From: Frankiaceae bacterium
Lineage (GTDB): Bacteria > Actinomycetota > Actinomycetes > BP-191
Direction: 5' to 3'
Length of the DNA stretch: 64,000 bases
Assembly: GCA_035940575.1 (NCBI GenBank)
Contig: DASZER010000043.1
Coordinates: forward strand, 130,961-194,960
The position numbers and the translations under genes were made by a program. Positions 47,132 to 48,606 of the stretch are shown piece by piece; the stretch's first letter is position 1; each line of letters begins with the position of its first letter. Under the pieces are notes generated by a model. That model was not told the origin of the DNA and did no database searches. It worked only from the letters and a program-made list of their open reading frames with translations.

Positions 47132-47155
47132 GCGTCACCGCGGCGTCACGGCGCC
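47132..47155 (-). promoter_or_regulatory. Two GTGACGC direct repeats spaced 11 bp, flanked by GGCGCC, upstream of DUF4157 gene b
   Basis: Plus-strand gcgtcac occurs at 47132-47138 and 47143-47149, and ggcgcc at 47150-47155. In transcription orientation this reads GGCGCC GTGACGCCGCG GTGACGCGCGG CGGGCGACG ATG. Confidence 0.45.
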
Positions 47156-47195
47156 GCCTGCGGTCGGCGGGCGCGTGCGTCGCGTACGTCATCCG

Positions 47196-48560
47196 CTACG
47201 GCAGCCGGAAGAGGTCCGAGTGGCGGCGGCGTTCGTCCGCCTCCGTCGTCTTCCGCGCCAGGTAGTCCTCCCGCATGGGCAGCGGCCGCGCGAGCTCGTC
47301 GACCCGGGCCTGGTCGTTCACGACGCCGATCGACGAGAAGAACGACGCCAGCGCCGTCCGGAACCGCACCACCCGTTCGGCGTCGGTCGGCGCGCCGTCG
47401 ATCGTCCGGGCGTGCTGGTGGTAGAAGCGGATGCCGAGCTGGTTCGACACGATGTCCTCGTAGCTGAACGCCGACTTCGCGCTGTCCTGCAGGAACTTGG
47501 TCCGCTGGTCCTCGTCGAGCTGGTCGAACAGCTCCCGTTGCGTGCCGCGCAGCGTCCGCTCCGCGAACGCGAGGGCGGCGAGCCGGGCCGCGCCGCCCGC
47601 GACCTGCTGCGGCGCCCGGAACATCGGCGTGTTCGGCGGGCGCACCTGGAGGAGCCGCAGCGTCGGGTGCTGCGTCGGCGGCGCGCCGAGGATCACGTAG
47701 TCGCGGATTCGCTGCTGGTCCGCCTCGATGCCGATGCCGCGGCTCGTCGCGGCGTCGAACGCCTGCTGCCGCGTCCGCCCCGCCACCGCGGCGTCCTGCT
47801 CGGCGTAGTCGATGAAACCGAAGAAGTGCTGGCAGTCGATCCACCCGTACGTCGTGGAGAAGACGTAGCGCGGGTGGACGCTCTCGATGCCGGGCCGGTG
47901 GTCGGGCTCGGTGAAGTGGCGGATGAACAGGTGCGTCCAGACGCGCCGCGCCAGCACGCCCGTCGTCACCGTTGCGGGGAAGTTCGTCCGGATCAGCGAC
48001 CAGCGGCGCCGCGTGGGGTCGGACGAGAGCGGGTGCGGCGACAGCGCGAGGATGCGTTCGGCCTCCACGACCATCTGGTCGGCGGTGGCGCGGCGGGGGT
48101 ACGTCGGCTCCCGCAGGATCACCGGACCCGTCGTGCGCAGGCGCCGTACGGCGGGCGCGCCGGCGAGCACCGCGACGTCGGCGTCGTGCTCCAGCGCGCC
48201 CGGGTCGCCGACCGGTCCTGCGCCGCGTTGCTGCAGCGTGTGCACGAGCTCGTGCGCGACCCGGAACCGCCCGGCGTGCGACGACGTCTCGAACATCGCC
48301 GGCGCGAAGAACACGTGCCGACCAACCGTGAACGCGTTGGCGTCGAGCGCCCGCGCGGCCGACGCGGCGAAGTCGTCGGTGTGCACCCGTACGTCGCCGA
48401 ACGACGTGCCGAAGTGCCGTTGCGCCCACGCCGCCACCGGCGAGGGCAGCGCGCTGCCGGGGCCGCGGTGGCCGCGCACGGCGGAGACGGCGCCGGCCGC
48501 GTCCCCGCGCGCCTGCGCCGCGGCCACCCGCTGCGCCGCGCGCGCCGCGTGCACCGTCAC
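47196..48560 (-). CDS. DUF4157 HExxH protein with unknown C-terminal domain; candidate eCIS cargo
   Basis: 454 aa, GTG start. DUF4157: FGTSFGDVRVHTDDFAASAARALDANAFTVGRHVFFAPAMFETSSHAGRFRVAHELVHTLQQ. In the C-terminal ~300 aa (e.g. YGWIDCQHFFGFIDYAEQ) I recognise no family. Confidence 0.85.
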   Translation of the reverse strand: MTVHAARAAQRVAAAQARGDAAGAVSAVRGHRGPGSALPSPVAAWAQRHFGTSFGDVRVHTDDFAASAARALDANAFTVGRHVFFAPAMFETSSHAGRFRVAHELVHTLQQRGAGPVGDPGALEHDADVAVLAGAPAVRRLRTTGPVILREPTYPRRATADQMVVEAERILALSPHPLSSDPTRRRWSLIRTNFPATVTTGVLARRVWTHLFIRHFTEPDHRPGIESVHPRYVFSTTYGWIDCQHFFGFIDYAEQDAAVAGRTRQQAFDAATSRGIGIEADQQRIRDYVILGAPPTQHPTLRLLQVRPPNTPMFRAPQQVAGGAARLAALAFAERTLRGTQRELFDQLDEDQRTKFLQDSAKSAFSYEDIVSNQLGIRFYHQHARTIDGAPTDAERVVRFRTALASFFSSIGVVNDQARVDELARPLPMREDYLARKTTEADERRRHSDLFRLP

Positions 48561-48581
48561 GGCCGCGACGATCCGCTCGCG

Positions 48582-48606
48582 GCGTCACCGCCGCGTCACC
48601 GGCGCC
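48582..48606 (-). promoter_or_regulatory. Two GTGACGC direct repeats spaced 11 bp, flanked by GGCGCC, upstream of DUF4157 gene c
   Basis: Plus-strand gcgtcac occurs at 48582-48588 and 48593-48599, and ggcgcc at 48601-48606. In transcription orientation this reads GGCGCCG GTGACGCGGCG GTGACGCCGCG, 22 nt before GTG 48560. Confidence 0.45.

Follow-up and report, generated by a model that had tools for sequence, protein, structure and literature searches.

A phased GTGACG repeat as the probable SARP box of a contractile injection system and its DUF4157 cargo genes in a Frankiaceae genome

How are the structural genes of a contractile injection system (CIS) and the cargo genes beside them switched on together in an actinobacterium? 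The regulation of CISs in Gram-positive bacteria is poorly understood, and the literature found on it consists of a LuxR-type regulator from Streptomyces and a remark, at the level of domains, about BTAD. The question is raised in a concrete form by a stretch of 64,000 nucleotides of high-GC actinobacterial DNA from a Frankiaceae bacterium (GenBank assembly GCA_035940575.1, contig DASZER010000043.1, positions 130,961 to 194,960 of the forward strand), hereafter the window, which carries an extracellular CIS (eCIS) and, next to its sheath gene, three genes for DUF4157 proteins, here called a, b and c. A first-pass annotation had noticed that a GGCGCC hexamer and phased GTGACGC repeats precede both b and c, and had proposed that these two genes are co-regulated with the structural operon. 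The follow-up analysis supports this proposal, in that phased repeats at the promoters of b and c would place both genes in one regulon with the eCIS structural operon. Quite probably, the phased GTGACG heptamers are the boxes of a SARP (Streptomyces antibiotic regulatory protein), bound by the activator encoded at 42934-43686, which would switch on structural and cargo genes together.

Phased repeats in front of the sheath and cargo genes

Pfam places the products of a, b and c in eCIS_core/DUF4157 and that of 40669-42660 in phage sheath families. Gene c (47196-48560, minus strand) encodes 454 aa and matches PF13699 with an E of 4.8e-24, gene b (minus strand, 45439-47109 with the start codon proposed below) combines DUF4157 with an Aspzincin_M35-like domain, and gene a (43791-45434) is a DUF4157 gene on the plus strand. 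In front of gene c, two GTGACGC heptamers on the minus strand (48582-48588 and 48593-48599) form a box at 48582-48599 that reads GTGACGC-GGCG-GTGACGC, and gene b is preceded at 47132-47149 by GTGACGC-CGCG-GTGACGC, likewise on the minus strand (heptamers at 47132-47138 and 47143-47149). In this orientation the upstream regions are GGCGCC GTGACGCCGCG GTGACGCGCGG CGGGCGACG ATG for gene b and GGCGCCG GTGACGCGGCG GTGACGCCGCG AGCGGATCGTCGCGGCC GTG for gene c, the repeats occupying the short gaps upstream of ATG 47118 and GTG 48560, respectively. Re-reading of the minus strand showed that the positions first given for the repeats and for GGCGCC in front of both genes were all correct, as was the placement of the two sites in short intergenic gaps.

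Two further sites are found on the same strand. Upstream of the sheath gene, whose ATG lies at 42660, three GTGACGG heptamers form a box at 42703-42731 (42703-42737 together with GGCGCC), which overlaps the end of a 60-aa open reading frame (ORF), its last codons and stop included. This ORF is itself preceded by a box at 42920-42948, composed of TTGACGT, GTGACGC and GTGACAG and reaching into the SARP coding sequence, whose last codons and stop it overlaps; an equivalent triple is found in four related contigs (L001, L005, L211 and L212). Neither this fourth site nor the adjacent SARP gene figured in the first-pass annotation. All four window sites share a period of 11 nt.

The phasing, and not the abundance of the heptamer, is what distinguishes these sites. 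Single GTGACGC heptamers are not over-represented in the window (31 observed versus 43 expected), and the pair GTGACG-N5-GTGACG, with at most one mismatch, has six matches in its 64 kb, all of them on the minus strand and all within the four gene-proximal sites. A weight matrix built exclusively from sites of other loci gives 28.0 bits to the box of gene c, 26.0 bits to that of gene b, 27.7 bits to the sheath box and 21-24.5 bits to that of the 60-aa ORF; no other position in the window scores above 9.9 bits, and the highest score over 30 Markov-simulated windows was 20.5 bits. In 1.5 Mb of related loci, 158 dyads of the form [GT]TGAC[GA]-N5-[GT]TGAC[GA] were counted, versus 2-9 in first-order Markov simulations. 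When pairs of GTGACG in 79 independent genome loci with a SARP homolog are sorted by their spacing (6-26 nt), a distance of 11 nt accounts for 112 of them and one of 22 nt, which arises from triple sites, for 28, while each of the other distances has 0-7. The repeat signature in front of b and c is thus confirmed as real and far beyond chance.

The two halves of the signature first described nevertheless fared differently, the phased repeats standing as the conserved element and GGCGCC not. The hexamer abuts three of the four window boxes (p ~3e-7), at 48601-48606 beside that of gene c, at 47150-47155 beside that of gene b and at 42732-42737 beside that of the sheath gene, but it accompanies none of the 104 sites in other loci. 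At the sheath site its place is taken by TGCGCC in a 90%-identical relative and by a fourth heptamer in a 77%-identical one. Since it is missing elsewhere and replaced in the closest relatives, GGCGCC is specific to this genome and was rejected as a part of the motif; it may be the trace of a recent copying of a promoter cassette within the genome.

The neighbouring SARP gene and the geometry of the promoters

The ORF directly upstream of the 60-aa ORF (42934-43743, 269 aa) matches the Pfam family BTAD with an E of 1e-20 over residues 164-263; the Pfam Trans_reg_C model found no match in it. The gene proposed to encode the binder of the repeats is the 250-aa frame at 42934-43686 on the minus strand. 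Its product is 100% identical to a protein from a Frankiaceae metagenome-assembled genome (MAG), and JGI lists its homologs, of 240-260 aa, as activators of the SARP family. When 36 homologs are combined into a profile, this can be aligned full-length with the AfsR SARP domain (8hvr_I; E 8.8e-12), positions 15-246 corresponding to AfsR 40-282. Moreover, an AlphaFold2 (AF2) model of the protein (pLDDT 92.7) finds its best matches in the AfsR chains of two cryo-EM structures of transcription initiation complexes, 8k60 and 8hvr (TM 0.73, 243-245 alignment columns), with EmbR as the next best. Taken together, the BTAD match, the full-length profile alignment and the superposition of the model identify the predicted product as a complete small SARP, made up of an OmpR-type DNA-binding domain and a BTA domain. 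In the AfsR structures, a SARP dimer occupies the -35 region and provides an alternative docking surface for region 4 of the sigma factor.

No site lies in front of the SARP gene in the window. In five other loci (L008, L015, L036, L039 and L067) a GTGACG dyad is located upstream of the SARP ORF, which suggests positive autoregulation in some lineages.

According to the published rule, SARPs recognise direct repeats 11 or 22 bp apart, of which the 3' repeat lies 8 bp from the -10 element (PMC10936776). For the repeats studied here, the geometry was read from 106 unique sites aligned on their last heptamer, by examining columns that had not been used in site finding. An A is present at +16 in 67% of the sites and a T at +20 in 59%, each against a background of about 15% (a roughly 4-fold enrichment), which places a hexamer nAnnnT exactly 8 nt after the last heptamer; the conserved flank of each heptamer is a preceding CG. 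Within the window, all on the minus strand, the putative -10 hexamers are GATCGT for gene c (48568-48573, 8 nt after GTGACGC), GACGAT for gene b (47117-47122, 9 nt after GTGACGC), AAGGGT for the sheath gene (42689-42694, 8 nt after GTGACGG) and TAAGCA for the 60-aa ORF (42906-42911, 8 nt after GTGACAG, with ATG 42899 a further 6 nt away). Relatives keep these positions: GATCG is retained in front of gene c in L006, gene b has CACGCT at the same 9-nt offset in L006, the sheath gene has CAGGGT at the same offset in L211 and L212, and TAGACA, TAGGAC, TATGCA and TAGTCA occupy the offset in front of the small ORF. A scan of 42600-49100 for sigma-70 -35/-10 consensus promoters and intrinsic terminators found nothing, as is to be expected for high-GC Actinobacteria.

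The position of the start codons gives a second view of the same geometry. At about 20 sites, a downstream ORF supported by its third-position GC content (GC3) has its start codon 27-31 nt away from the last repeat, counted from the 5' base of that repeat. Such codons fall where transcription should begin, 6-8 nt past the -10 hexamer, which would make the corresponding mRNAs leaderless. By distance, gene c (28 nt) and the 60-aa ORF (27 nt) belong to this class, and for gene c the predicted transcription start, at about 48560-48561, coincides with GTG 48560. For gene b, transcription is predicted to start at about 47109-47110, and the annotated ATG 47118, at 20 nt, would lie upstream of it, whereas GTG 47109 is found at 29 nt. 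The ortholog of gene b in L006 begins GTG-CTG-ACG-TCG-GAG-TGC, lacks the upstream ATG and shares the 9-nt-spaced hexamer. This GTG start and the fit to the leaderless distance class make GTG 47109, not ATG 47118, most likely the true start of gene b. The sheath promoter is of the other type: the start codon, ATG 42660, lies at a distance of 49 nt, and the predicted 5' untranslated region of about 21 nt includes a Shine-Dalgarno sequence, GAGGAGG. The distances of about 50, 28 and 20 nt that had seemed to vary in the first-pass annotation (49, 28 and 20 nt as measured here) would therefore represent two classes, leaderless promoters (27-30 nt) and leadered ones, in line with its suggestion that some transcripts may be leaderless or that the true starts may lie downstream.

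The 60-aa ORF (42717-42899, minus strand) is conserved between the SARP and sheath genes and is called as a gene in relatives; in many loci a small protein of 60-83 aa occupies this place, usually with a predicted leaderless mRNA. An alignment of 17 members shows conserved W13, R23 and W53 and the motif ER.GV.VVR.W.E...LRAR.T...VR.WL, and searches of the family against Pfam and NCBIfam gave no match. Its box and promoter geometry mark the ORF as a predicted member of the regulon. The protein ends in GAVTAR* in the window and in VVTTR* in relatives, the last codons and the stop lying inside the sheath promoter box, and coding sequence and box therefore constrain each other. A second copy of GGCGCCGTGACGG is present at 42837-42848 (minus strand) inside the ORF, so that the peptide GAVTAR is encoded twice; this copy was rejected as a site, as it scores 5.5-6.8 bits with the weight matrix and has no phased partner at 11 nt.

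Extent of the putative regulon and competing explanations

Three sets of loci were used for comparison. These include close relatives (contigs L001-L006, L211 and L212), in which the SARP is 67-90% identical to that of the window; a distant set of 80 genome loci with SARP homologs of 43-56% identity, drawn from many Actinomycetota and from contigs assigned to Limnocylindria, Dormibacteraceae, Chloroflexia and Deinococcaceae; and four loci (L087-L090) whose gene c homologs are distant. In the close relatives, a divergent DUF4157 gene, the SARP gene, a 59-aa ORF and the sheath gene follow one another in conserved order. Across loci, phased GTGACG units precede sheath or Pvc16 genes in more than 20 independent cases, with unrelated spacers, and the sheath box is conserved in many loci that are far apart phylogenetically. 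Of the 79 independent genome loci anchored on a SARP homolog, 44 carry at least one site no more than 400 nt away from the SARP ORF, and the 63 sites found in this range comprise 42 downstream on the same strand, 16 divergent upstream and 5 before the SARP gene itself, none of the 63 pointing into the SARP gene. Boxes are also present in the SARP-bearing contigs assigned to Limnocylindria and Dormibacteraceae. The 93 ORFs downstream of sites include, by Pfam class, 15 sheath, 7 Pvc16_N, 6 BTAD and 5 eCIS_core proteins, together with assorted proteases and toxin-like proteins. In SARP-anchored loci, 11 of 18 DUF4157 genes have a dyad on the same strand within 700 nt upstream of the domain, where about 4% would be expected by chance; they include genes of a Gaiellaceae MAG (L010) and of three Amycolatopsis genomes (L019, A. 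halotolerans JCM 13279; L021, A. jejuensis NRRL B-24427; L038, Amycolatopsis sp. GA6-003), which come from cultured relatives with the same architecture. The element before sheath and Pvc16 genes, its frequency before DUF4157 genes and the orthologs in L006 are what lends support to the co-regulation of b and c with the structural operon.

Several box-preceded genes without CIS domains were noted in loci L007-L086, and these are candidates for additional members of the regulon. They encode papain-like Peptidase_C1 (3), DUF2278 (2) and DUF1360 (2) proteins, a PT-HINT toxin, a subtilase, a transporter of the AcrB type and a protein of 218 aa that is conserved between three Amycolatopsis loci.

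For the cargo sites themselves, L006 is the only informative ortholog locus. Its SARP is 71% identical to that of the window and the orthologs of c and b follow directly after the SARP gene, each with its box: ATGACGG-GGCG-GTGACGG, 8 nt, GATCGC, 8 nt and GTG for c, and GTGACGG-CGCG-GTGAGGC, 9 nt, CACGCT, 6 nt and GTG for b. The first-pass annotation had named a lack of conservation in homologous loci as evidence that would speak against shared control, and both boxes are kept here. In the four loci with distant gene c homologs (53-70% GC), these genes are part of CIS operons; neither a called SARP gene nor a dyad is present, and for that reason the loci are uninformative on the conservation of cargo sites. 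The L006 locus is rearranged (4760-5000, 5690-5810, 7150-7320 and 10120-10290 of that contig): part of the SARP C-terminus is duplicated, as are promoters that carry a box; the small ORF after the SARP gene is truncated, the b ortholog stops after 17 codons and more DUF4157 fragments lie downstream. These rearrangements are read as signs of a rapid turnover of cargo genes beside the regulator.

In this genome, gene a appears to have left the regulon. Two GTGACG repeats, a GA(C/T)CGT or CACCCT hexamer and a leaderless GTG are present at each of its orthologs in L001, L005 and L006. In the window, the weight matrix gives no match upstream of gene a, as had been reported for the signature at the outset, and the region 43740-43800 (plus strand) contains a degenerate relic of the box in the form of the decayed heptamers GATGGCG and GGAGACG, with an 11-nt deletion relative to the three orthologs that removes the -10. 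The start of gene a is likely ATG 43791, 25 codons past the first possible GTG at 43716.

On its upstream side, the promoter of gene c is insulated by a GC-rich hairpin at 48644-48680 (minus strand), downstream of a 94-aa ORF. The terminator-like structure described there before was recovered as a perfect 16-bp stem with a 5-nt loop and no U-tract; the 76-nt stretch 48625-48700 has a minimum free energy of -43.6 kcal/mol (z -2.5), and the scan for consensus terminators does not detect the hairpin. The 94-aa ORF itself (48692-48976, minus strand), directly upstream of the gene c promoter, has a signal-peptide-like N-terminus (MKRLLTVALLAGGLAAAVPASA...) and several cysteines, and no Pfam family matched it.

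From this architecture we infer binding by the SARP, activation, the transcription starts given above and co-expression, on the model of AfsR and other SARPs. SARP protomers would bind side by side to the direct repeats, one helical turn (11 bp) apart, with the last repeat 8 bp upstream of a weak -10 hexamer, and the bound SARP would take the place normally held by the -35 element. In this position the protomers would recruit RNA polymerase to promoters without a usable -35. In the window, four promoters would be driven in this way, those of the 60-aa ORF, the sheath gene with the eCIS operon, cargo gene b and cargo gene c; as one activator would drive all of them, the particle and the two DUF4157 cargo proteins would be made together. 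Leaderless transcripts would begin at GTG 47109 (b), GTG 48560 (c) and ATG 42899 (small ORF), and the leader of the sheath mRNA, about 21 nt long, would include a Shine-Dalgarno sequence.

A number of observations weigh against control by the neighbouring SARP. The -10 hexamers of b and c (GACGAT and GATCGT) are weak, and that of b needs a 9-nt spacer. There is no terminator between c and b, so b could also be transcribed by read-through from c. No strict dyad was found close to the SARP gene in 35 of the 79 loci; a few of the dyad-less loci have degenerate repeats (ATGACG, GCGACG or GTGATG), and in the rest nothing obvious is present. Variants of the heptamer include GTGATG in L018 and TTGACA in L080. 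Streptomyces SARP homologs (43-44% identity) near CIS genes have no dyad within 500 nt of the SARP gene. An unanchored scan of metagenomes for the exact triple heptamer returned mostly simple tandem repeats in low-GC contigs, and a SARP gene was on the contig for only 5 of the 15 box-like matches (on short contigs) and 2 of the 65 others, a noisy result that gives weak reciprocal support for the link between box and SARP. Finally, the heptamer resembles the consensus of MtrA, a conserved actinobacterial response regulator of the OmpR family, and another winged-helix protein could on account of this resemblance read it. As to the arrangement in Streptomyces, in seven loci (L052, L064, L071, L072, L075, L084 and L085) sheath-like genes lie on the opposite strand, some 3-4 kb away from the SARP homolog.

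The last of these points can be extended to a reading in which MtrA or another winged-helix regulator of the OmpR/PhoB type recognises the repeats, CIS and cargo genes follow a global envelope or developmental signal and the SARP is not the direct reader. This is very improbable, even though the MtrA consensus shares the GTGAC core and the 11-nt period (PMC5650626) and CIS expression in Streptomyces is tied to development and envelope stress (PMC10020575, PMC10286715). In S. coelicolor the consensus is [GT]T[GA]ACC-N5-GT[GT]ACN, two direct repeats of about 6 nt set 5 nt apart (PMC5650626), and the dyads do not follow it in having C at position 6 of the first half-site: G occupies this position in 118 of the 134 upstream repeats and in 124 of the 134 downstream ones, C in no more than 6 and 4, respectively. 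GTGACC is common in these genomes, yet G is retained at position 6 in 88-92% of the dyads. Furthermore, the sites gather close to the SARP gene, within 400 nt and in a fixed orientation, their constant distance of 8 nt to the -10 is a SARP signature, whereas MtrA sites occur at variable positions, and boxes are also found in the SARP-bearing contigs assigned to Limnocylindria and Dormibacteraceae.

Alternatively, the repeats may be SARP-related but negative or interfering in effect, acting as operators or roadblocks, or being modulated in their occupancy at the sheath box by transcription or translation of the small ORF. The overlaps described above invite such a reading, as the sheath box covers the stop codon of the small ORF and the box of the small ORF covers that of the SARP gene, so that transcription from upstream must cross each box; besides, boxes stand before the SARP gene itself in some loci. 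It is, however, very improbable, given that the boxes occupy the -35 position with no -35 consensus present, that characterised SARPs activate from exactly this position (PMC10936776) and that the boxes of b and c are intergenic, with no overlapping ORF. As for the view that the likeness between the regions upstream of b, c and the sheath gene reflects local duplication or GC-rich bias and has no regulatory role, the window-specific GGCGCC, such as a recent copying of promoter cassettes would leave, and the ordinary frequency of the single heptamer are compatible with it, but it is effectively refuted by the presence of the element at equivalent positions in loci whose SARPs are only 43-56% identical, by heptamers and -10 positions that stay constant as spacers vary, and by the strict 11-nt period and weight-matrix scores far above the simulated maxima.

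Control by the neighbouring SARP, as the preferred reading, would have several uses. A defined cis-element and its regulator constitute a testable switch for particle production in cultured Amycolatopsis, Geodermatophilus and other strains, contractile injection particles being of interest as protein-delivery devices. As a sequence tag, the box would separate co-regulated cargo (b and c) from a neighbour that has dropped out (a), and the start codons of the cargo genes could be corrected and their transcripts predicted to be leaderless. SARPs, whose usual part is the activation of antibiotic pathways, would gain a further role in the control of a phage-derived nanomachine. A wider proposition, tentative and on balance rather unlikely, is that the GTGACG box marks the CIS regulon across Actinomycetota and some Chloroflexota-related lineages, and that the conserved leaderless protein of 60-75 aa, always found encoded between the SARP and sheath genes, is a regulatory partner of the SARP that had gone unrecognised. 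If this were true, the box would tag unlinked cargo, effector and accessory genes without DUF4157, with papain-like proteases, DUF2278 proteins and PT-HINT toxins as candidates, and expression of the small gene could be physically coupled to the firing of the structural operon, since its stop codon lies inside the sheath promoter box.

Relation to known regulators of injection systems and to other SARPs

From the perspective of CIS regulation, the closest precedent at the level of domains is the survey of Geller et al. 2021 (PMC8213781), which describes genes with BTAD (PF03704) beside eCIS loci as a "shell" component and proposes them as regulators. The SARP of the window belongs to this class; the passages of that survey that deal with regulators give no binding site, promoter architecture or regulon, and the cis-element, the link to the cargo genes and the leaderless geometry are worked out here. 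In Streptomyces coelicolor and S. lividans, the regulator SCO4263/SlpR is encoded at the edge of the CIS cluster, and deletion of slpR abolishes the particles (PMC8505568, PMC10286715). The window SARP resembles it as a dedicated regulator at the edge of an actinobacterial CIS cluster, although SlpR/SCO4263 is of the LuxR type and depends on bldA through a TTA codon. The boxes of MtrA are similar in their GTGAC-like core, their 11-nt spacing and their OmpR-type winged-helix reader (PMC5650626), and differ in the preference for C at position 6 of the first half-site, in their loose conservation and variable placement and in having no linkage to a SARP gene. Searches of full-text literature returned no description of a SARP box for CIS genes, nor of a GTGACG box together with BTAD. 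In view of the BTAD proposal, of the LuxR type of the Streptomyces regulator and of the lack of a prior SARP box for CIS genes in these searches, the mechanism is most likely the known SARP mechanism, acting on a class of targets for which no binding site had been described.

The comparison with SARP promoters is the most extensive. With those of the Streptomyces antibiotic clusters (ActII-ORF4, DnrI, and AfsR at the afs box of afsS), the present system shares the OmpR-type and BTA domains of the regulator, direct repeats 11 bp apart in 2-4 copies, a last repeat 8 bp from a weak -10, the lack of a usable -35 and a regulator gene located inside or beside the target cluster. The classical SARP repeat is TCGAGnn. 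Here the heptamer is GTGACG. The predicted targets are a phage-tail-like contractile injection system and DUF4157 cargo genes instead of a biosynthetic cluster, and many of them appear to have leaderless mRNAs. The family, moreover, is not confined to Streptomyces but is met across Actinomycetota and in contigs assigned to Chloroflexota-related lineages. What is new with respect to the known SARP systems is accordingly the heptamer, the CIS and cargo targets, the recurrent leaderless design and the taxonomic breadth.

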